The notes: generated by a model from the sequence alone, not told the origin. DNA of 46,221 nucleotides from Candidatus Yonathbacteria bacterium CG_4_8_14_3_um_filter_46_25 (GCA_002788135.1 PFQT01000040.1:1-46221), one strand, 5' to 3'; shown: positions 210-46,037, numbered from the stretch's first letter. Made by a program: numbers and translations.

Positions 210-665
210 TTACTCTCCAAACACCCATGTGTCCTCCCACTCCACCCACTCGCAAATGATGGGAGAGGCCTCAATCACCTTCCGAAAGAGGCCCAAAAAC
301 CACGGCTGGTAGTCCTCGACGATCGTGTCGTAGATGGATACGCCGACGTACCCAAACGACAGATCATAGAGGTGGCCACCATAGATATCCTCCCAGTTGC
401 CCATCTTTCCAAGGATAACATCTCCTTTGGTGTAGGTAACTAGAGGGATACTTGCCGTGGTGATGCCTGCGTCGAGGAGCATCTCGTAATCCGTCTCATC
501 TGACGGATTGACGCATTCCTCGTAAAACACCTCGCGACATTCGGGTATTAACCGAACGCCGCAATAAAGTGAGCGCAGAAATCCACGTCCACTCCGATGT
601 CCGGGGACAAGAAGCGGCCCCTTGAGTCCGAAACGCCACAACGTTCCGATTTCTCCTTCTTTCAT
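210..665 (-). CDS. Hypothetical protein (151 aa), GC-richer orphan
   Basis: Long ORF with its own terminator and no recognised family. A resemblance to SUKH/SMI1-type immunity proteins is only an impression. Confidence 0.5.
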   Translation of the reverse strand: MKEGEIGTLWRFGLKGPLLVPGHRSGRGFLRSLYCGVRLIPECREVFYEECVNPSDETDYEMLLDAGITTASIPLVTYTKGDVILGKMGNWEDIYGGHLYDLSFGYVGVSIYDTIVEDYQPWFLGLFRKVIEASPIICEWVEWEDTWVFGE

Positions 666-6619: not shown

Positions 6620-7024
6620 ATGAACAAGATCATTGCGGGAGTAGCGACGGCGACATTGTTCGCAATAGCTTCACCGGTATTCGCTTCTACTGGCCATGGA
6701 TGGTTTTATAGCAACAACGGAGGCGATATTACGGTGACGAATAACAACAGTGCGCATGTCCAGAACACGGTAGCTGTCAACGCAAACACTGGTTACAACA
6801 CCGCTGACGGCGGAAATGGCGACCAGGGTGGCAACGGCGGAAACGCGACGGGTAGCCATGTCTGGTGGTGGTTCCAAAACAACGGAGCCGCTAATGCTGG
6901 CAATGCCGGGAATGGCGGAGCTGGCGGTACTGGCGGTTTGGTTGTGACCGGACACGCGGATGCGCTTTCCGATATTGCGAATGTTGTAAACACCAACATT
7001 ACTCGCATCACACGGGGTTTGTAA
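6620..7024 (+). CDS. Secreted Gly/Asn-rich protein carrying one copy of the locus-specific repeat module (P1)
   Basis: Signal peptide MNKIIAGVATATLFAIASPVFA. NSAHVQNTVAVNANTGYNTADGG...TGHADALSDIANVVNTNITRI matches the module repeated in 7688..10774. The start is taken at ATG 6620 (the ORF opens at 6488). Confidence 0.7.
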   Translation: MNKIIAGVATATLFAIASPVFASTGHGWFYSNNGGDITVTNNNSAHVQNTVAVNANTGYNTADGGNGDQGGNGGNATGSHVWWWFQNNGAANAGNAGNGGAGGTGGLVVTGHADALSDIANVVNTNITRITRGL

Positions 7025-7045
7025 TTCCGTCTATATTCAGTGGAT

Positions 7046-7072
7046 TTTATTGAACACCGAGTGTCCAATAAA
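7046..7072. repeat. 27-nt palindromic element, copy a (one arm mismatch)
   Basis: tttattgaacaccgagtgtccaataaa has 12-nt arms and a 3-nt centre. It lies 22 nt after the stop of 6620..7024. Other copies are at 20754, 28658 and 43232. Confidence 0.85.
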
Positions 7073-7203
7073 CTGGGTAACGAGTAACGAAGCGTGAGGA
7101 GTTGGAATCGAGTCTTGCTCCTCCCTTCGGATAAGCCAGTCGATGCGTTCTTCGCGGCTGAAGATACCAATTGCTGGTTTATGCGAGGGTATTCATTATC
7201 AAT

Positions 7204-7713
7204 ATGCATATATCGGTAAAAAAGTTACGTTTCTTGTCATTGGCGGGCGTCGCCCTTGTTTTTGGAGGATTCCCTTTGTGTGTTGCGGCGGATTCGGTTG
7301 ATATTATCAACACGGTATCGGTTAGAGCGTCGAGCGGGAATGGGGGAAATGCGAAAGGGAGCGTCCATATCGAAACTATTGTCAATGGAACCACTGTTGA
7401 ATCGATTGATGAGTATGCGGAGGATCCTATGAATGTCCGGATTGAGAAAACGAGCGAGATACGCACCAATACCGTGGTTGCCTCCATCGTGGCTGACGAT
7501 ACGGCTCTGATGGCGGGAGCGACGACCACAGCGGAAAACACCGCTTTCGTAAAGAGAGATACTTTTCCCGGGGACCACGGACTTGGACAAACGGAAATCG
7601 AGGTTGAGGAAACACCCGCCGCTTTAGAACAAGCTTCACTATCGTTTGGCCAATCGATTGTTTTAGCTTTTAATCATCTTCTCTCATATGTTTTTTCATT
7701 CTTTAACGCGTAA
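7204..7713 (+). CDS. Secreted protein with a half repeat module (P2)
   Basis: Signal peptide MHISVKKLRFLSLAGVALVFGGFPLCVAA. DSVDIINTVSVRASSGNGGNA resembles the first half of the module. Hydrophobic C-terminus. Confidence 0.6.
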   Translation: MHISVKKLRFLSLAGVALVFGGFPLCVAADSVDIINTVSVRASSGNGGNAKGSVHIETIVNGTTVESIDEYAEDPMNVRIEKTSEIRTNTVVASIVADDTALMAGATTTAENTAFVKRDTFPGDHGLGQTEIEVEETPAALEQASLSFGQSIVLAFNHLLSYVFSFFNA

Positions 7714-10700
7714 TACGAGGGCGAATTCGTTTAGGTGGCGAATAATCGGCGGAATACTTATTGTTTCGCTTCTTTCGATACGTTTTCCGATGCCAATTGT
7801 GCTTGCCGACGATGCGAACGATCAGACGGCAGTCGTTGATACCGTTGACCAAAGCAATGATGCGCCACTCGCGAAGACCGCGTCGGAAACATCGGCAATC
7901 ATTGAGACGGGCAACGCGATGAGCGAGGCAGAAATTGCGAATACGGTTAATACAAATACTACCGACACCGATTCCGCTGTCGTCGATGACGATGCATCGT
8001 TTATTCCCGCGGAGGAAGCGGTGGAAACGACGCCGGATATTTCTTCGGATACAATACCAACCGAAGATACCGCCTCCGTATCTTCACTTTCCGACGAGAG
8101 TGCCGAAACATCACCCGAATCGCCGGACAATAATACCGTTGTAAGCAACGAAAACGACGCGATTCTGGAAAATACAGTTGAGTCGAGTGCGCAGACCGGG
8201 GGCAATGAAGCATCCGGCGCGGGCATAAGTTCCGTCACTACCGGTAATGCGTTCGCCGGAGCGAATATTATCAATGTCATCAACACAAACGTACTCAATT
8301 CAACGGGTCTTTTGCTTCTCTTGAATAATTTCTTCAACGTTACGGACGACTTTGATCTCCGAAATATTTATTTTCCTTCCACGAGCGCCGATCCAGTTAT
8401 CGAGAATTCGGAAGGCGCATTTGAAGCGGAAGATGAGCCGTGCGATCCCGATGTGTGCGCGCAAAGCTCTACAATCGCCTCCAAGAATATCAACACCGCG
8501 CAGATTATAAATGATGTCGTGGTTCGGGCAAATACGGGGCAAAACATGGCAACAAGCGATAACGCGACCATTGATACCGGAAACGCTTATGTGGGGGCAA
8601 ATGTGGTGAATATCGCCAATACCAATATTGTTGACTCAAATTATCTTATTCTCGAGATCAACAATTTTGATGATTGGTTTGGAGACTTCGTGTTCCCGTC
8701 GAGCGGCGCTCTTAACGGTTTATTCGGTTTTGGAAATAGTAACGCCGCGGAGCAAGATGAAGACACGGCGAATATCAGCAATGCCAACGATGCCATCGTG
8801 ACAAATAATGTCACGACAAATGCTTTGACTGGCGGAAACGAGATCACCGGCGCTGGCGACGGGTCAGATGTACGGACTGGAAACGCTGTTGCTTCGGCGA
8901 ATATTGAAAATATAGTCAATCAAAATATTTTTAACACTGATTCATTTTTGGTTATTTTTAGAATTCATGGGAACTGGATCGGCAATATCTTCGGTTCACC
9001 AAACGGACTCGCATGGCAAGAAACTCCGGGTGGAATAATGCTCTTTAATGGAGATTTCTCCGAGAACAGTGCGAATAGCAAGAAAAACGCCGTTACTAAT
9101 GTAAATAATGATGTAAAAAACAACAATCTCGCGAATATCACCAATAATGTCAATGTTTATGCTCTGACTGGCGATAATAAGGTCGCTGGCGCGAATAGTT
9201 TGATCAATACGGGAAACGCCTACGCGGCCGCGAATATTGTCAACGTCGCAAACGCGAATATTGTCGGAAAGAATTGGGTTTTGGCAATCGTGAACATATT
9301 TGGAAATTGGACCGGCAATGTCGCCTTTGGGAAGCCCGACCTGTGGATTGGCGGTATGGTGGAAACCAAAAAATATCCCGTTGATCCCGGAACATGGATG
9401 AAATACCGTTTTACCGTGGTTAACCGAGGCGACGCGGATGCAACTGATGTATCAGTTATAGACACACTCGACCTGCGTCATCTGAAATATCGCAAGCCCG
9501 CCAACGCTGAATTGCGCGGCGACACTATCGTGTGGCATATAGGCACTATAGTGCCCGGCGGGACAGTTGAGCTTGAGCTTGATGCGCAGGTTACGAGCGG
9601 TAATATTCCAAACGGCACCATGACGATAGATAACACAGTAACCGCAACAAGCGCGGAAAATGACCAAAATAATGCGGATAATAGAGAGATGGTAATCTTT
9701 GATGTGTACAAACCATCCGCTATAAGCTGGACTGATGTGATTCTTACGCCTGATCCGCACTTATTCGTAGTAAAAACGAATAACACCACTGGTCCCATAA
9801 CGGCAAGCAGTACGGTTGATTACACCATCACGATAAAAAATAAAGGTGGGAGCGCATACCACTCAGTAGTGGTTGATACACTAAAAAACGAAAAAGGTGA
9901 TGTTATTAATGAGGAGGTATGGGATCTTGGTGAAATAGTTCCGAATGAAGAGATAACCGTTGATTATTCGATATTTTTCACTGCAAGCACCACGCCGGGA
10001 GGATATACAAACACAGCACAAGTACACGCGATCGGACGCAATGCCTCTCTTGATCCGTTTTATGGGTGGTTTGCGGATTCAGAAGTAACTACCAGTACTA
10101 TTACCATCCTTGGAAACCCGCCTATGACGTTTTTTGGAGAGACTCCATGGAGCAATGCTACCTCTGTCGTTATGGAGAACGCAACGCCGCCAACTCGTTC
10201 AATTATTGCGCAGAACACTATTTTGACCAAGAATATTAACAGTACCTACGCATTGCTCGAGAAACCTTTCCGTGGCATTCAAGTTATGAAAGGAGATAGC
10301 GCTACTATCGAAGATGGCGGGAACGACGAAATATCCGTTACGGAATTTGACCCGAGCGAGGTGTGCTCGCTTGAGAAGCCCGATCCGAGACCAAACTCAT
10401 TCGCTGATCTTATGCTCGCGCTCGGACTTGGCGATCTGGCAAAAGGCGACGGTGGTGGTACCAATGGCGCATTCGTATATCTCGCGTTGACATATTTGAT
10501 ACTCTATCTCCTCTACTCGACATACCGGGAAGAGGCGCACAGGCGGCTATTCTATGACCTTGACTCTCCGCAGGGGATAGCCGCTCTGTTCGCGAATGGC
10601 ACGACACTCGCTTATATCATTGCAAGTATCACGGGAATTACCGAAGCGCTTACTCCACTCGTGATGATAAATATCATGCTTATTTCAACCGTCTTTTTTT

Positions 10701-10774
10701 TCAACTATCACGACGAATTGTCGCGCTACTTCTCAAGGATGGCGGCATTCGTAAGGTTTACCAGCTTTCTTTAG
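7688..10774 (+). CDS. Large anchored surface protein (P3): acidic Ser/Thr-rich linker, four repeat modules, two DUF11/CARDB-like domains, C-terminal multi-TM region
   Basis: N-terminal anchor. There are four copies of N.A.I.N.V...A.TG.N...G...TGNA.A.ANI.N..NTNI....L.L..N.F..W.G...F (about aa 155-550) plus a half copy at aa 73-92. VVNRGDADATDVSVIDTLD and ITIKNKGGSAYHSVVVDTL are conserved-repeat (DUF11-like) signatures. The last ~150 aa contain hydrophobic helices. Confidence 0.8.
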   Translation: MFFHSLTRNTRANSFRWRIIGGILIVSLLSIRFPMPIVLADDANDQTAVVDTVDQSNDAPLAKTASETSAIIETGNAMSEAEIANTVNTNTTDTDSAVVDDDASFIPAEEAVETTPDISSDTIPTEDTASVSSLSDESAETSPESPDNNTVVSNENDAILENTVESSAQTGGNEASGAGISSVTTGNAFAGANIINVINTNVLNSTGLLLLLNNFFNVTDDFDLRNIYFPSTSADPVIENSEGAFEAEDEPCDPDVCAQSSTIASKNINTAQIINDVVVRANTGQNMATSDNATIDTGNAYVGANVVNIANTNIVDSNYLILEINNFDDWFGDFVFPSSGALNGLFGFGNSNAAEQDEDTANISNANDAIVTNNVTTNALTGGNEITGAGDGSDVRTGNAVASANIENIVNQNIFNTDSFLVIFRIHGNWIGNIFGSPNGLAWQETPGGIMLFNGDFSENSANSKKNAVTNVNNDVKNNNLANITNNVNVYALTGDNKVAGANSLINTGNAYAAANIVNVANANIVGKNWVLAIVNIFGNWTGNVAFGKPDLWIGGMVETKKYPVDPGTWMKYRFTVVNRGDADATDVSVIDTLDLRHLKYRKPANAELRGDTIVWHIGTIVPGGTVELELDAQVTSGNIPNGTMTIDNTVTATSAENDQNNADNREMVIFDVYKPSAISWTDVILTPDPHLFVVKTNNTTGPITASSTVDYTITIKNKGGSAYHSVVVDTLKNEKGDVINEEVWDLGEIVPNEEITVDYSIFFTASTTPGGYTNTAQVHAIGRNASLDPFYGWFADSEVTTSTITILGNPPMTFFGETPWSNATSVVMENATPPTRSIIAQNTILTKNINSTYALLEKPFRGIQVMKGDSATIEDGGNDEISVTEFDPSEVCSLEKPDPRPNSFADLMLALGLGDLAKGDGGGTNGAFVYLALTYLILYLLYSTYREEAHRRLFYDLDSPQGIAALFANGTTLAYIIASITGITEALTPLVMINIMLISTVFFFNYHDELSRYFSRMAAFVRFTSFL

Positions 10775-11166
10775 TAAATAATCCTTTTCTTAAAGCAAAA
10801 AGTTGTCCTTATCGCTTCGTTGTTTACACTCGAAAGCATGGAAAGTGACGAGGGATGGGCTATCGCGGAACCGTGAAGCAAAACGCCCATCAATCTTGAA
10901 AATGTACGCAAGCACGCGCCAAAAGCCGTGAATTTTTTCAGACAATGACCCATTTGTTTCATTTGAGAGCAATGGTCTTTTTAAGTAAAAATTCGATATT
11001 ATATCGACTGTCGAACATGAAAAAAACATTTTTACAAAAGAGGAAAGAGTATTCGAAACGCCTTGGCACTTGATGCGATTTTGAAAATTAATTAAAAACA
11101 ATGAAGCATTAAAATACTTCCGAAGAAAAGCACATAAAATCAAATTGGCAACTCGATTTTTCATCA

Positions 11167-11227
11167 AGGACAATTAGTATAGGACAATATATTACGGCTT
11201 TATAAAGCCGTTGCTAGTTGTCCTATA
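11167..11227. promoter_or_regulatory. Nested inverted repeat with three GGACAA half-sites upstream of the TasA-like gene
   Basis: aggacaat occurs at 11167-11174 and 11181-11188. tataggacaa (11178-11187) pairs with ttgtcctata (11218-11227), enclosing the hairpin acggctttataaagccgt (11194-11211). Confidence 0.4.
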
Positions 11228-11355
11228 GGGTGCTATTTGACATCGAAAAAAAAGTATTTTTAAGCTTGTTTCGCGCAGTTGACATGACTGTTCTGGCGGT
11301 TAAAGTTTTATTATCTAGTGTGGTTGAATAGCTTGACGCGCTAGGATGAACCAAT

Positions 11356-13464
11356 ATGAATAAACACCACGCAGCAAAAATTTTTTCAAAGATACTGATA
11401 GCAGTCTTGTCGATCGGAATCAACTTGGGAACTTTCGGGAATATCGCTTTTGCCGATTTCGATGAAACAGCCACTGAAAGCTCGGCGGGGAATGTCATCG
11501 GAGCCGGAACACTTGATCTTGGTCTGGTTGCCACATTGTCTCCGTGGGTATTCGATCGATCCACCGGAACGACCACAGCGGAAAAAACGATCGGCATCGC
11601 ATCTTTTGGAACTTTGCCGTTCCAATACAACGCTTCGACCACTGTTTCGGCGGAGTGTATTGGGATTGACGCGGAGATCCGCCTAACTGGCCAAACGATA
11701 TATTCCGGTGCTCTTGAAAATGCGACCACTTCTGCGACGACCACACCCGGAGATATTTCATTATTGTTAACGCTTCCCATCGGGTATGAACAGGGCGTGG
11801 CATGTTCATTTGATGTTGATTTTCGCGCGTGGCAGACAAACGTTGGGAATTATGGTGAAAATGGTTTTTCTGACGCGGCTTCACTCAACGAGCGAGTGTC
11901 GGAAAGTTCGGTAATGATCAATAAGGTTTACTACGATGTAAACACGGAGTATGGCACGGAAGCGAACGAGTGGATCGAGCTCCGCAATAACGCGTCATCC
12001 ACCGTTGATATCTCCGGATGGCGACTGTGCGACAACGTTTCATGTGACGAACTGCCCGAAGGATCATACATTACCGGTTTCGGACACACGCTTGTTTCCG
12101 CGACAAGCGCTACATGGCAATACTGGAATATTCCCGACAATTTTGCGAAAATCGTAATCGACGATAGCAAGATAGGGAATGGTCTTGGCAATGCCGGTGA
12201 TATTTTGACGCTCGAGAGATCAGATGCCACGGTCGTTGACGCGATGAACTGGGGCACCGATACAAGCTATTGGAACCCAGGGATTCCCCTTGTTCTTGGT
12301 GAGGGGTACGCGCTTGGCCGAATAACGAATGTTGACACGGATACCGCGTCTGATTTTAAGGAAATGGCTCCGCCGACTGTCGACCTTTTGAGTCCGGACG
12401 AAGCCGATGATAGTAGGTTTTGGTATTGGGGTCAGTCTTATGCGATTACCTGGAACGCCGATAATCTTCACGGGAGTAACGAGGATCTCTCAATTGATCT
12501 GTATTACATCAAAGATGAAAATCATAACCAAGTTATCGACAACGCTGATACTATACATGTCATAGCAGACAACATTGCCAATAGCGGAGCATACGACTGG
12601 ACAGTTCCGAGTGGGTTTGTGGGATATATCTGGGTAAGGGTTGTCGCGACGGCTCCGGAAAATCCGATGCTCTCAAGCCAAACAACCAGTGGAAAGATAT
12701 ATGACCCATTCCCGACGAAAATGTGGGAGAATGACCCGGATGGCGTCATAGATATGATTATTGCGGATACGGCAGACGAGGGGAAAGTCGTGCTTTCCGA
12801 CACCGTTGACCGGCTAGAAACTGTTGGCTCTGTGGCAGACGCAGATGAAGAATTAGCGGAGGACGAGGTGGTGCCATATAACCATAACATTGAAATAAAC
12901 CGGAACGATGGTGAGTTTGTATCAGGCGAGATTAGCCAGACACTGGAAATGTCAACAACGTCAATAGAGAGCGAAGAAAACGAAATTGAAACAGTGGCAG
13001 AAGAGCCCGTTCTCGACCAAGCAGATACTATAACGACAGATGTCAGCGCCGACAGCGTTCTTTCTGAAAGCGGTAATATGAATGAAAAATCAACACCAGA
13101 GACTGTAATAAATACGGAAGACGTTAAAACAGAGCAGGATGACAAGATAACCGATGATGAAGTTGTGTTGGAGATAAAGGTAATAGTTCATGGTGAGACT
13201 GACGTGGCGGTAATACAGGAAATGGGCGAAGGCGATGCGGTGCTTTCTGTCGCTGAAGTTGACACGATAGTGCAAGGTAATCGCGCTGATAGAGATACCG
13301 CAAAAGAAATAGTTGATAATTATGTTGATGTTCGTACTATACCGGTCACTCTGGAGCCGGCAGACATGATAGTCACTGATATTCTGTTACATACTTTCGA
13401 TAATGATGGCGATAATCAAACTACGACGGAAGAATTTGTGGAAACGTCGCAAGCGCCACGGTAA
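11356..13464 (+). CDS. TasA/camelysin-like protein (P4) with SipW-type leader, lamin-tail domain, Kre9/KNH-like domain and acidic tail
   Basis: KILIAVLSIGINLGTFGNIAFADFDETATESSAGNVIGAGTLDLGL resembles the TasA/CalY leader plus AGTLDL strand. The domain ends CSFDVDFRAWQTN (compare TasA FSFEATQWNG). The LTD signature is INKVYYDV...ANEWIELRNNASSTVDISGWRLCD...GDILTLER. WYWGQSYAITWN...IANSGAYDWTVP is Kre9-like. Confidence 0.7.
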   Translation: MNKHHAAKIFSKILIAVLSIGINLGTFGNIAFADFDETATESSAGNVIGAGTLDLGLVATLSPWVFDRSTGTTTAEKTIGIASFGTLPFQYNASTTVSAECIGIDAEIRLTGQTIYSGALENATTSATTTPGDISLLLTLPIGYEQGVACSFDVDFRAWQTNVGNYGENGFSDAASLNERVSESSVMINKVYYDVNTEYGTEANEWIELRNNASSTVDISGWRLCDNVSCDELPEGSYITGFGHTLVSATSATWQYWNIPDNFAKIVIDDSKIGNGLGNAGDILTLERSDATVVDAMNWGTDTSYWNPGIPLVLGEGYALGRITNVDTDTASDFKEMAPPTVDLLSPDEADDSRFWYWGQSYAITWNADNLHGSNEDLSIDLYYIKDENHNQVIDNADTIHVIADNIANSGAYDWTVPSGFVGYIWVRVVATAPENPMLSSQTTSGKIYDPFPTKMWENDPDGVIDMIIADTADEGKVVLSDTVDRLETVGSVADADEELAEDEVVPYNHNIEINRNDGEFVSGEISQTLEMSTTSIESEENEIETVAEEPVLDQADTITTDVSADSVLSESGNMNEKSTPETVINTEDVKTEQDDKITDDEVVLEIKVIVHGETDVAVIQEMGEGDAVLSVAEVDTIVQGNRADRDTAKEIVDNYVDVRTIPVTLEPADMIVTDILLHTFDNDGDNQTTTEEFVETSQAPR

Positions 13465-13473
13465 ATATTATTT

Positions 13474-14814
13474 ATGAAAAAAACACCATTTAAACTATTT
13501 ATATCGTCATCTCTTCTTGTGATTGGCATGTTGACGCTTGGAGTATCTCTCGTCCATGCCCAGAGTATTGATGTTAGTTTCGGGAATGAGCCATTCTTTA
13601 ACGACCTTAATCTAGCTCCCGGAGAAAGCATCGCGCGCTATATTGATGTCGCCAATCTCGGAACCACAACCCGACAAGTGATCGTGCGCGGCACTTCAAC
13701 TGACGCGTGTTCCGATGTGTGTATTGGAGATAAACTTTCTTTCGAGATACACGAGGCGACGAGTACTCCGTTCAACGATACGGTTGCCACATTTTTAAAC
13801 GCGGGAGAGATCGTGCTTGGCACTATCGCACCGGGCGACGTGGCGCATTATGACCTTACCGCCACGCTTGATTTGTCTACGGGTAATAGCTACCAAGGAC
13901 GTTCAATCTCGTTTGATCTCGTTATCGGTTTTAGTACTGTCGATTTAAGCGGCGACAATGGTAGCGGCGACACGGGAGATGACTCCGGTTCGGGTGGAAG
14001 CGGAGATGGTAATAGCGGCGGTGATTCAGGCGAAGACGGTATGGGCGGAAGCCAAGAAAATGTTATTCTCTCACAAGGTGGTGGTGGAGGCGGTAATGGT
14101 CCAATCGTTATCAGTGAGAACCTTCTCATAACCAATGAACATATCAGTGATATTAACATTGCGAACGGCACCGCGGTCATTGTATGGAATACTAATCGTC
14201 CCGCCACAAGCCAGGTGGTGTTTGGGAATGCTTCGGAAGGTCCGTACAGTATTAATATAACACAGCAAAACTTTGGTTATGCGCATTCAACCATCGAAAA
14301 TCCGAACAGAACGACCACGCATATTGTTATTGTTGCCGGTCTCAAATCGGGTGAAAAATACAGCTATCGCGTCGTTTCTCGTGAGAATACTTCGATACCG
14401 ACATTGAGCCAAGAGCATCAATTCATTTTTTCCGAAAACGGATTAGAGATCGTTTCCGGCAGCGGATCAGATGGAAGCGGAATGGGTGGTTCGTTTGAAA
14501 GCGCAATCGTTCCTCCGGGCAACGATAACCGGACTCCTGGGTTGGGAAACGAAGGCGCTTACGACACTACCACTCCGATTGAAAGCGATACAAACGGAAA
14601 TGGAGAAAAATTCACGGTTATGGGAATGACGGCTAGTGGTATCTTGGGAGGTCTTGCCGCGGCGCTCTTTGCCTTGGAACAACTGCCTGGATGGGCTCTC
14701 TGGTTTATCATACTTATTGCCATTATTATCATTTCGTATATCACCAGGCAGTATTGGCAACCCTACCTCGTAGGCGATGATTTGAACAGTTCAAAAGATA
14801 TCCCTAAAAAATAA
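13474..14814 (+). CDS. Second TasA/camelysin-like protein (P5) with Gly/Ser/Asp linker, FN3-like domain and C-terminal TM anchor
   Basis: Sec signal peptide. LNLAPGESIARYIDVANLG and GNSYQGRSISFDLVIGF parallel TasA NLKPGD... and NKYQGNSIKLQFSF. TAVIVWNTNRPATSQVVFG...GEKYSYRVVS is FN3-like. The C-terminus is LWFIILIAIIIISYI. Confidence 0.6.
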   Translation: MKKTPFKLFISSSLLVIGMLTLGVSLVHAQSIDVSFGNEPFFNDLNLAPGESIARYIDVANLGTTTRQVIVRGTSTDACSDVCIGDKLSFEIHEATSTPFNDTVATFLNAGEIVLGTIAPGDVAHYDLTATLDLSTGNSYQGRSISFDLVIGFSTVDLSGDNGSGDTGDDSGSGGSGDGNSGGDSGEDGMGGSQENVILSQGGGGGGNGPIVISENLLITNEHISDINIANGTAVIVWNTNRPATSQVVFGNASEGPYSINITQQNFGYAHSTIENPNRTTTHIVIVAGLKSGEKYSYRVVSRENTSIPTLSQEHQFIFSENGLEIVSGSGSDGSGMGGSFESAIVPPGNDNRTPGLGNEGAYDTTTPIESDTNGNGEKFTVMGMTASGILGGLAAALFALEQLPGWALWFIILIAIIIISYITRQYWQPYLVGDDLNSSKDIPKK

Positions 14815-43282: not shown

Positions 43283-44938
43283 CTACATCTTTTTCCCCTT
43301 CCTATTCTCCCACTGCGGCAATTCAATAAAAAAAGTGGAGCCATGGCCCGGACCGGCGGATTCCGCCCAGACATTACCGCGATGCGCTTTGATAATCTCG
43401 CGGGAGACAAAGAGGCCGATGCCAGAGCCAAAGCGTCCCTGCGTGCCATTGTGGCTGAACTTCTCGAAAATATTCTCAAGCGATTTGCTCACGATTCCCT
43501 TGCCCGTATCGGAAACAGCAATACGAACTTTTTTGCTCCAGTTATCATTAGAAAGCAGCACGTTTATCAAGCCGACGTCGGTATAACTGATGGCATTTGC
43601 AATAATATTGTAAACTGATTGTTTGAATTTCTCACGATCAACTTTAGCCATGACCGCGCCACCGTTATCAAACTGGAATCTGACGCTCAATCCTTTTTCT
43701 TGCGCGACCGGTTTAACGTCATTGATGATCTCTTTTAATAAGTTCTTGAGCTCGATTGTCTCAAAGCTATATTGCACTCTCCCCTGCTCGATCCGTGAGA
43801 CCATGAGGAAGTCTTGGATAATAAGCACCAGTCGTTGGCTTGATCGAAATATTTTCTCGACCGCCCGCTTCGCTTCATCGGATAAAGGACCGAATGATCC
43901 CTCGGTCAACATTGAAGCATACCCTTTAATCGCCGTCAGCGGCGTACGAAGCTGGTGTGATGCAATAGAAACAAATTCCGTCTTTTGCTGTTCCATATCG
44001 CTCAAATGTATATTCGCTTTCGTCAAATCCCCTGCAAGTTCCTTAATTCGTTCGCGAGTTTCTATGTCTTTCTTTACACCTTTGATTAAAAAAAGACTAA
44101 AAATTCCTGCTAAAAAGAGAGAGCTACCCCTAATGAAAAAAAAAGTAGTAGTTTTTGCAAGAAGTAGGTTAAAAACTAATATCATTAATATTAAGGTGGT
44201 TAGTATTTCAGCAGTTATGAGTTTTATTTCCCAAAGATTATAACGAATGATTGCATATCCTATAATTACTGACATTAAGATTGTTGTTATAGGTCCCAAC
44301 CAAAAAAATTCAAAAAACCCGAATGTTGGGAGGATAAGGTTGGTCATAACGCCAATAAGTGACGGGATGAGTGTTCCTATGAATATGTACTTAATTTGGG
44401 CTTTCAATACTCCATTGCTTTTTCTAAACTGTCGGGCTAAAACATAAAATCCTGCTATGAAATAACCCAGTATGTGAACAACATACAGTGGGTACATCTT
44501 GCCAAAAGTAATTATCTTAATTGGGTTAGTGTTTGTAATCGAATCTATAACACTATTTGGAATTATTGTTATGAAAACAATAATAAAATATGTTAGTATT
44601 ATAAAAATAGATTCCTTTCGATGTAATATTATTTTCCCTCTTGAGATAGCAAGAGAAAATAAGAAAAATAGAATTGGAATCAAACTCGCACTCAAATATA
44701 ATACCCTTGAAGAAAAGAAAATTAGGAGGGATGTATTAACTTCTTCAAATAATGCGCGGGAAAATGCCCACATCGAAACACTCCCTGCAATAAGCGCAAA
44801 AATAGTATTGCTTTTTTTTGTCTTATCGCGGTCAAGTTTGTATACCCGTAAACCGAGTACTAGGTTTACGATCCCCGCGACAACAAGAAGGATACTTTGT
44901 ATTTTGAAATCAATAATTCCACTTGTGGTCATACTCAT
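43283..44938 (-). CDS. Sensor histidine kinase 2, paralogue of kinase 1 (orphan)
   Basis: Same architecture as kinase 1. The H-box is FVSIASHQLRTPLTAIKGY. Long collinear similarity to kinase 1 through the HisKA and HATPase domains. The N-terminal half is very AT-rich. Confidence 0.9.
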   Translation of the reverse strand: MSMTTSGIIDFKIQSILLVVAGIVNLVLGLRVYKLDRDKTKKSNTIFALIAGSVSMWAFSRALFEEVNTSLLIFFSSRVLYLSASLIPILFFLFSLAISRGKIILHRKESIFIILTYFIIVFITIIPNSVIDSITNTNPIKIITFGKMYPLYVVHILGYFIAGFYVLARQFRKSNGVLKAQIKYIFIGTLIPSLIGVMTNLILPTFGFFEFFWLGPITTILMSVIIGYAIIRYNLWEIKLITAEILTTLILMILVFNLLLAKTTTFFFIRGSSLFLAGIFSLFLIKGVKKDIETRERIKELAGDLTKANIHLSDMEQQKTEFVSIASHQLRTPLTAIKGYASMLTEGSFGPLSDEAKRAVEKIFRSSQRLVLIIQDFLMVSRIEQGRVQYSFETIELKNLLKEIINDVKPVAQEKGLSVRFQFDNGGAVMAKVDREKFKQSVYNIIANAISYTDVGLINVLLSNDNWSKKVRIAVSDTGKGIVSKSLENIFEKFSHNGTQGRFGSGIGLFVSREIIKAHRGNVWAESAGPGHGSTFFIELPQWENRKGKKM

Positions 44939-46037
44939 TTATTATTTTTCCCCAACTCCTCAATGGAGCTAACTGGAAATTATATCTCTTTGCAAGTTCC
45001 ATTATTTTATCAACATGCTCAATTCTTACTTTTCCTAATGAAAAATCCTCCATGCCTTCTGCTGCGACAATCATTGTTTCCGCAAGACAAGCAAATGTAG
45101 TTCCTTCTGGTGTTCCAATATTAAAATTGTATTTAATATTTTCCGGCAATTTTACAACCCCCCCATCAATCACAATGACATCTTTTCTTTCTTCTTGTAA
45201 CGACAGTGAAACATTTTGTGGTTGTGTAATATCATAAATAATCACCCCATTTTTTAAATTATCCTTTGATAATAATACTTCGGTAGAACTTGTTGCCATT
45301 ATTATGATATCAGCATTTTTTACAGATTTAATGTCCGTAAAGGTCGAGATGGAAACTTCTTTGTATGCACTTGATAATTTATTTGCAAGTTCATTAAGGT
45401 GTGCTGCGGTTTTTCCAACCGCAAGAATATGACGAGTATATCTATCCCTTAACAACAGCTGACAAACCGCTTGTCCGATGGATCCCGTTGCGCCAACAAC
45501 CGCAAATATAAGTTTTTCATTGCGCATATTTTTTAAAGCAAGTACACGCGTAATTCCTTTGAGGGTCATCCCCACTGTAAGTGCATTCCCTGTAGTAAAA
45601 CCGACCTCGTGTTCTCTTTTTAGATCAATCCCCCCGTTTGTGATTGGAGATATCAATGCACCAAGTCCAATAACCCTTGCGCCTCTTTTTTGCGCCAACA
45701 AAACAGCTTTGTTTATAAATTTTTTTGCAAGTTTTCGGTCCGCTATCATTTGCTCCGCTGTGATTGGCAAAGAAATAATCCACCCAGGGATATTTCTTTG
45801 CCCATTTAGATTATGTACTCCTTGGATATACGAAACAGTAACTGGCCAAAAAAAGTGCGCTAACATGAATTTTATAAAACTTTTTGGAAGGTAGCGTAAA
45901 AGCGGATATTTTCGATAAATATCAGAGATATTCCTTGGGTGTACTAAAAACGCAAAACCTGCTGGGTTAGTTGGACATGGCTTGTAACGTACCATTAAAT
46001 CCGCAACGCTAGATATTGCAAGAGAGATAGTTTCCAT
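44910..46037 (-). CDS. Acyl-ACP reductase-like NAD(P)-dependent dehydrogenase (COG5322-type)
   Basis: GLGALISPITNGG, TTGNALT, AVVGATGSIGQAVCQLL, FACLAETMIVAAEG and YNFQLAPL line up with cyanobacterial AAR blocks (GGFTSI, TTGNTHT, VVGATGDIGSAVCRWL, FACFAEAMLLEFEG, HGFQPLA). It overlaps kinase 2 by 29 nt. About 30% G+C on hand-counted lines. Confidence 0.65.
   Translation of the reverse strand: METISLAISSVADLMVRYKPCPTNPAGFAFLVHPRNISDIYRKYPLLRYLPKSFIKFMLAHFFWPVTVSYIQGVHNLNGQRNIPGWIISLPITAEQMIADRKLAKKFINKAVLLAQKRGARVIGLGALISPITNGGIDLKREHEVGFTTGNALTVGMTLKGITRVLALKNMRNEKLIFAVVGATGSIGQAVCQLLLRDRYTRHILAVGKTAAHLNELANKLSSAYKEVSISTFTDIKSVKNADIIIMATSSTEVLLSKDNLKNGVIIYDITQPQNVSLSLQEERKDVIVIDGGVVKLPENIKYNFNIGTPEGTTFACLAETMIVAAEGMEDFSLGKVRIEHVDKIMELAKRYNFQLAPLRSWGKIINEYDHKWNY

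Follow-up and report, generated by a model that had tools for sequence, protein, structure and literature searches.

The closest described counterpart of the genes reported here is the TasA system of Bacillus subtilis. TasA has a donor strand at residues about 28-39 (PMC9674648), and, according to PMC10269814, an aromatic residue at position P2' makes it a substrate of the signal peptidase SipW and a poor substrate of LepB. Homologues of PF12389 in Patescibacteria were noted in passing in the work on the archaeal AbpA/AbpB pili (PMC9245690). We analysed a locus of five genes, P1 to P5, in a 46,221-nucleotide stretch of DNA (hereafter the window) from Candidatus Yonathbacteria bacterium CG_4_8_14_3_um_filter_46_25 (GCA_002788135.1, PFQT01000040.1:1-46221), a member of the Candidate Phyla Radiation (CPR). 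An earlier inspection of the sequence, to which we refer as the original prediction, had read the five genes as one apparatus. Our analysis leans, with a little better than even confidence, towards two neighbouring CPR surface-protein cassettes, each conserved separately from the other: cassette A (P1-P2-P3) and cassette B (P4-P5), the latter related to TasA/SipW and proposed to act by strand-exchange tethering.

The five consecutive open reading frames (ORFs), all on the plus strand, were found at the coordinates claimed. Each of the proteins begins with a hydrophobic signal or anchor, C-terminal transmembrane (TM) segments are also present in P3 and P5, and no enzymatic domain was detected in P1-P5 by Pfam and NCBIfam scans, as the original prediction had stated in each case. 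Existing annotation describes the five as hypothetical or gives a domain name only. The overlap between P2 and P3, the start of P5 9 nt past the end of P4 and the 581-bp spacer with a promoter-like site between P3 and P4 suggest two units.

Scanning the P4-family alignment against GTDB genomes showed how cassette B is organized in relatives; the synteny counts refer to the loci selected by the tool, and the taxon labels of metagenome-assembled genomes (MAGs) are as deposited. A P4 homologue is directly followed, on the same strand, by a P5 homologue in about 20 CPR loci, spanning Paceibacterota, CPR3 and Portnoy-, Chisholm-, Curtiss-, Gottesman- and Roizmanbacteria, and across these distant lineages the two genes often overlap at their ends. 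In 17 of the 20 evaluable loci the P4 homologue is immediately preceded by the gene of a SipW-type signal peptidase (TIGR02228, 100 bits, cut-off 51.85; Bacillus SipW model, 113 bits). The one to three proteins encoded further 5' have a SipW-cognate leader (TIGR04088) and choice-of-anchor C or W domains or DUF642; the usual order of cassette B is SipW-cognate proteins, SipW, P4, P5. Since SipW stands directly upstream in relatives, the SipW/TasA idea of the original prediction proved sound. In the window and in its closest relative, locus L007 (P4 57% and P5 50% identical, both genes intact), the upstream part with SipW and the cognate proteins is absent.

Some variants of this cassette were also seen. 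SipW fusion proteins are encoded at L025:9215-10552, L031:3-1196, L099:16906-18351 and L102:18061-19620; in Chisholm- and Curtissbacteria the fusion partner is a lamin tail domain (LTD), and in two metagenome loci it is a P4-type TasA-like domain, so that one protein holds both the peptidase and a domain of the substrate type. L016, L017, L025 and L042 have sortase genes flanking the cassette, and in L142 the SipW cassette is followed by the gene of a membrane protein (L142:20533-21705) in which a bactofilin domain was recognized (PF04519, 27.9 bits).

In P4, an N-terminal anchor (amino acids (aa) 6-32) is followed by the motif AFA/DFDETATESSAGNVIGAGTLDL (the slash marks the putative cleavage site), a beta-sandwich reaching aa ~185, an LTD (183-300), an Ig-like domain (~340-455) and an acidic tail (460-702; 27% D+E). 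The LTD, which the original prediction had proposed to check, was recognized by PF00932 with 39.2 bits, above the gathering cut-off of 34.3. The family came from a word-index search with full-length P4 as query, the N-domain alone giving nothing: 55 homologues in the protein collection, all with an LTD (PF00932 matched 50 of the 50 scanned), the available source names being Parcubacteria/Paceibacterota MAGs. Two cysteines of the N-domain, C101 and C150, are invariant (alignment A2), and all family-invariant residues are kept in the window P4 (Y91, C101, C150, Q160 and positions of the LTD and Ig-like domain).

The N-terminus of the family has the consensus T.AYYND.E.S..N.F.AG..DF.L. TIGR04088 matched 14 of 31 family members (best E 1.5e-6) and PF12389 matched 9 of 50 P4 homologues (two of ten above the gathering score), the PF12389 matches extending from the leader over the N-terminal strand to the PGD strand. 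When the profile of the P4 N-domain was compared by hhalign with B. subtilis TasA, whose sequence was checked against 8AUR and 5OF1, a probability of 68% (E 4.8e-5) over TasA residues 23-117 was obtained, and the segment YYND.E...N.F was placed opposite the TasA donor strand. These comparisons of sequence support a TasA-type leader and N-terminal strand in the P4 family, and homology of the whole N-domain to TasA is probable. The AlphaFold2 (AF2) model of the N-domain (predicted local distance difference test, pLDDT, 84.9) consists of a TM helix and then a beta-sandwich.

Several results weigh against this interpretation. Neither P4 nor P5 of the window matches PF12389 or NF046066 at E<=1, and TIGR04088 matches neither of them. 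The PF12389 matches of its relatives span only profile positions ~14-77 of 196, and searches of PDB by sequence and profile with P4, P5 and alignments A2 and A3 gave chance matches only. When the model of the P4 N-domain was compared with PDB by Foldseek, TasA (5OF1, 8AUR) fell outside the top 50 matches. The leader of the window P4 is a degenerate SipW-type form, AFA/DFDETATESSAGN, with a 2-residue insertion, although AxA and the aromatic P2' are kept. Finally, no SipW-type peptidase is encoded in the window and the 10 kb further left (~21 kb upstream and ~31 kb downstream of the locus; ~56 kb in total). Thus the TasA/camelysin domain that the original prediction assigned to P4 and P5 is recovered for the N-terminal part at the family level and not by a direct match, the SipW-type leader is likewise a property of the family more than of the window P4 itself, and the proposed fold comparison did not retrieve TasA for P4. 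What Foldseek did return were sandwiches of a generic kind, from Ig-like domains, pilins and adhesins (E about 1e-3 to 1e-2), the top ones including the donor-strand pilins AggA, PsaA, CsuA/B and CfaE, all weak.

The degenerate leader form is common to the window and L007. In both, FDE[ET] replaces YYND.E in addition to the insertion (window 11455-11520, P4 aa 34-55), and the P4 of L007 has an additional ANSASANISANSANISAN repeat ahead of the leader motif. These two are the only P4 lineages clearly without an adjacent SipW, and both have the diverged motif.

The absence of SipW from about 56 kb, the degenerate leader in precisely the two lineages without an adjacent peptidase and the generic Ig-like matches of the fold search would all suit an explanation without strand exchange. 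According to it, P4 and P5 are independent paralogous surface proteins, P4 of type II with an uncleaved leader and P5 of type I, each displaying binding domains (LTD, Ig-like, fn3-like). We consider this unlikely, though it survives better than the other alternatives, because P4 and P5 are strictly adjacent, often overlapping, across very distant CPR lineages and are nearly always coupled to SipW, and because the AxA site and the aromatic P2' are kept in the window P4, the latter being the residue that makes TasA a substrate of SipW and not of LepB (PMC10269814). Since SipW is not nearby in this lineage, P4 would either be processed by a peptidase encoded elsewhere or stay anchored by its leader; the same aromatic P2' residue (PMC10269814) favours the first option.

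P5 begins with an ordinary signal peptide (VHA/QS), followed by a sandwich (aa 30-155), a Gly/Ser linker, an fn3-like domain (231-317), a TM segment (397-428) and a charged tail. Its N-domain is homologous to that of P4 (hhalign, 97.6% probability, E 3.6e-12); against TasA the hhalign probability was 40%, and PF12389 is touched by 2 of 16 P5 homologues. The alignments of P5 to both P4 and TasA begin past the donor-strand segment, and P5 has no N-terminal segment resembling the TasA donor strand, which would be expected of a TapA-like accessory protein. Without such a segment, P5 cannot propagate a TasA-type polymer. The topology is conserved: of the 13 P5 homologues of the Paceibacteria type, 12 end in TM segments and a basic tail; in P4 homologues the hydrophobic segment is N-terminal only and the C-terminal tails are acidic. 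A homologue search with P5 itself was dominated by the Gly-rich linker and gave 2 matches only. The fn3-like domain corresponds to a match to Pur_ac_phosph_N; P5 was rejected as a phosphatase, because this match is the fn3-like N-terminal domain only and the catalytic domain is absent. No LPXTG motif is present in the P5 tail of the window, which is long. In L016, the P5 homologue ends with LAATG, a hydrophobic stretch and a KNKK tail, and a sortase gene (L016:12137-12775; PF04203, 85.9 bits) lies directly 3' of it, overlapping.

Cassette A is characterized by a module of ~80 residues, rich in Asn, Thr and Gly, which occurs in P3 four times in full and once in part (consensus N.N.A.I.N.V...A.TG.N.A....I.TGDAyA.ANVVNvaNTNI). 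The original prediction had assigned the module to P1, P2 and P3. Against a hidden Markov model (HMM) of the P3 module, P1 scores 32.3 bits, a value reached by none of 500 shuffles (shuffle maximum 7.4), its copy being broken by a Gly/Asn-rich insert; P2 was rejected as a carrier, since its 0.8 bits are matched by 62 of 500 shuffles. The module had also been described as private to this locus, which is contradicted by an exhaustive search in which it was matched by 1654 clusters at 50% identity with E<=1e-3, 498 of them at E<=1e-30. Most proteins of this family are 850-1100 aa long and have, as in P3, an N-terminal repeat region of ~400 residues, and the repeat region together with two CLIPPER domains is kept in 36 aligned P3 homologues. 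In P3 the CLIPPER/DUF11 domains were found by PF01345 in two stretches (58.7 bits, cut-off 24.6) and by PF24346 (29.5 bits). Residues K696, D730 and N775 of P3 are conserved in the family (alignment A4), and this triad would fit an intramolecular Lys-Asn isopeptide bond with a catalytic Asp. The AF2 model of the four-module region is all-beta (pLDDT 76, predicted template modelling score 0.72), with repeat cores >90, and Foldseek found no structural analogue of the module in PDB (best E 3.7) or BFVD (best E 0.12).

The neighbourhoods of P3 homologues were compared in 80 metagenome loci. In 33 of the 51 evaluable loci the P3 homologue is preceded on its own strand by a small module-bearing (P1-like) ORF, and a P2-like ORF is found directly upstream in about 8 loci (E 2e-18 to 1e-4). 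The length of P1 varies by sample, from 134 aa in the window to a 236-aa two-module allele (L004:4962-5669) with a 303-nt insertion, which suggests recombination between repeat modules. In the L006 contig an extra A at window position 9213 in P3 (GGGAAAC becoming GGGAAAAC) splits the gene into ORFs of 531 and 472 aa, and the 90% cluster of P3 also has several truncated members of 472-524 aa from other samples; the split P3 may be a recurrent frameshift variant or an assembly error. Sortases are encoded 2-3 kb downstream of several P3 homologues (L130, L153, L160, L170, L172).

The two cassettes are mostly found apart. A P3 homologue within 10 kb occurs in none of the Paceibacteria-type P4-P5 loci, L007 has P4-P5 without P1-P3 upstream, and P1-P3 occurs without P4-P5 in most loci. 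In a minority of genomes they are neighbours. L145 and L142 combine on one strand genes like P1 and P3, two genes for cognate proteins, the SipW gene and a gene whose product has a P4 N-domain, and in the Gottesmanbacteria loci L042 and L045 P3-like genes lie a few kb upstream of SipW. Moreover, four SipW-adjacent proteins fuse a TasA-like domain to one P1/P3 module (L025, L031, L145, L148). Against a general association, a SipW cassette is present <=10 kb downstream of the P3 homologue in 5 of the 38 loci with >=7 kb of downstream flank. The link between the cassettes is nevertheless more than chance. The occurrence, in other genomes, of proteins that join the module to TasA-like domains makes it probable that the cassettes cooperate in one surface structure, and on account of the L145/L142 layout and the fusions the window resembles an L145-type supercluster minus the cognate proteins and SipW. 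In one of these loci (L025:10479-11888) the P1/P3 module sits inside the LTD, between the motifs INEVYYEVD and NDEWIEIYNP.

These data bear on the model of the original prediction, in which the five genes form one apparatus, a TasA-like filament of P4/P5 being obligatorily decorated or anchored by P1-P3. All five genes are adjacent on the same strand in the window, P1/P3 cassettes stand directly upstream of the SipW cassette in L145 and L142, and fusions between the module and TasA-like domains exist. The conservation of the five genes as a single unit is, however, contradicted by synteny: nearly all relatives, the closest one included, have P4-P5 without P1-P3, no Paceibacteria-type P4-P5 locus has a P3 homologue in the vicinity, and SipW and P4/P5 are not near most P3 loci. 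In addition, the spacer with its own promoter-like site separates the units, and P5, without a donor-strand segment, cannot extend such a filament. An obligatory five-gene apparatus is for these reasons improbable, and what stands of it is a functional link of P1/P3 to TasA-like proteins, indicated by the fusions and some shared neighbourhoods. We give very little credit to the idea that P4 and P5 are functionless relics left after the loss of SipW and the cognate genes, to which the missing genes and the diverged leader with its 2-residue insertion might point, because both ORFs are intact and identical across dozens of independent metagenome contigs, all family-invariant residues are kept, and both genes are intact in a relative at 57% identity.

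On the reading of two cassettes, P4-P5 would be the conserved core of a SipW-dependent, TasA-related system distributed across Parcubacteria and Microgenomates. P4 would be exported with a SipW-type leader, and cleavage after AFA33 would release an N-terminal strand that corresponds to the donor strand of TasA. P5, held in the membrane by its C-terminal helix and presumably folded into the same sandwich without the strand, would be the cell-bound acceptor. P4 would thereby be tethered at the cell surface, where further copies may join head to tail, with its LTD, Ig-like domain and acidic tail displayed outward. Cassette A may represent a fibrillar-adhesin-like set, in which P3, anchored C-terminally, would present four beta-modules of unknown fold on two CLIPPER stalks and P1 would be a secreted form of the P3 module, variable in copy number. 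We infer cleavage, strand exchange, tethering and adhesion from the homologies, the gene order and the topology described above. A wider proposal, which we put forward only tentatively, is that CPR bacteria widely possess a SipW-dependent, donor-strand surface assembly, in which membrane-anchored P5-type acceptors tether LTD-bearing, TasA-like P4-type subunits and module proteins for attachment of these ultra-small, host-dependent cells to hosts or surfaces, the module representing a new fold family.

The coordinates of the genes and of their main parts are collected in Table 1.

Table 1. Features of the P1-P5 locus, in window coordinates.
Feature	Position	Strand	Description
P1	6620-7024	+	134 aa, secreted, cleavable-type signal VFA/S, one P1/P3 beta-module copy
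P2	7204-7713	+	169 aa, secreted, without module; end overlaps P3 start by 26 nt
P3	7688-10774	+	1028 aa; signal/anchor, acidic spacer, repeat modules, two CLIPPER (DUF11), C-terminal TM anchor
P3 module region (residues 150-560), four copies	8135-9367	+	alignments A4 and A5, AF2 model
P3 two CLIPPER/DUF11 Ig-like stalk domains (about aa 562-667, 690-790)	9371-10057	+	PF01345, PF24346
Spacer between cassettes, 581 bp, AT-rich	10775-11355	no strand	promoter-like site at 11279-11306
P4	11356-13464	+	702 aa; N-terminal anchor, sandwich, LTD, Ig-like domain, acidic tail
P4 N-domain (aa 34-185)	11455-11910	+	putative TasA-like N-terminal strand and beta-sandwich; alignment A2, AF2
P5	13474-14814	+	446 aa; signal, sandwich, Gly/Ser linker, fn3-like domain, C-terminal TM, charged tail

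Housekeeping genes flank the locus, with RmuC on its upstream side and L21, RecR and DnaB on its downstream side, and no tRNA or Rfam match was found in the window. The original prediction was also right that the window encodes neither a SipW-type peptidase nor a sortase; no sortase was found in the 10 kb to the left either, and tblastn and HMM searches detected no SipW remnant in the P3-P4 spacer or elsewhere in the window. At the contig end (window 44001-46000) the G+C content drops to 35%, compared to about 46% in the rest, and a Shikimate_DH-like protein is encoded there. Strains diverge just left of the window, beyond a 151-aa gene at window 210-665 (L089 vs. L090): one contig runs into L31, RF-1, S2 and EF-Ts, another into a DDE transposase fragment and RNase R, and this difference marks a rearrangement breakpoint. 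About 8 kb beyond, L089 also encodes a Laminin_G_3/PA14 surface protein of 1662 aa.

No paper combining SipW with CPR was found in the literature, where both the cassette of SipW, LTD-containing TasA-like protein and anchored partner and the P1/P3 module appear to be undescribed. The results bear on how CPR bacteria attach to their hosts, which is largely unknown. They define a conserved, testable gene set across Parcubacteria and Microgenomates (SipW, an LTD protein resembling TasA, and a TasA-like partner anchored in the membrane). If the proposed mechanism is true, a third major group would be added to those with TasA-type assembly by strand exchange, here in a form with its own membrane anchor. 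They also draw attention to a surface-protein family of at least 1654 clusters, all annotated as hypothetical, whose beta-module has no known structural analogue.

Among known systems, the tapA-sipW-tasA operon of B. subtilis (PDB 5OF1, 8AUR) is similar in that the relatives of the window encode the archaeal-type peptidase SipW beside substrates with SipW-cognate leaders, the N-terminal segment of the P4 family aligns with the donor strand and first strands of TasA, and a second, accessory protein is present in both. It differs in that P4 adds an LTD, an Ig-like domain and an acidic tail to its sandwich, that P4 shows detectable similarity to TasA in the N-terminal ~90 residues only, which Foldseek did not recover, and that SipW is missing from the window; furthermore, TapA supplies a donor strand, whereas P5 is an integral membrane protein without one. 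The archaeal AbpA/AbpB pili of Pyrobaculum calidifontis (PMC9245690) likewise include a remote TasA relative and a conserved two-gene core of pilin and accessory protein and, like the window, have no dedicated peptidase nearby. AbpA is, however, a small single-domain pilin, unlike the multidomain P4 and P5, and neither a sequence nor a fold match to it was obtained for the window proteins. Chaperone-usher pili, where FimH is an acceptor without a donor strand, resemble the proposed arrangement in logic only, as the combination of a donor-strand subunit with an acceptor-only sandwich; neither usher nor chaperone is present here and the envelope is of the Gram-positive type. The likeness is one of function and does not speak for homology. 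Fibrillar adhesins with CLIPPER stalks (bioRxiv 10.1101/2025.04.25.650565; PDB 9IFR) share with P3 a signal, distal repeats, tandem CLIPPER domains and a C-terminal anchor, whereas P3 has in its distal region an undescribed beta structure of four modules, a stalk of only two domains, and an anchor made of TM helices instead of an LPXTG or OmpA-type element. Taken together, the locus is a variant of the TasA/SipW kind beside a widespread family of unknown fold.

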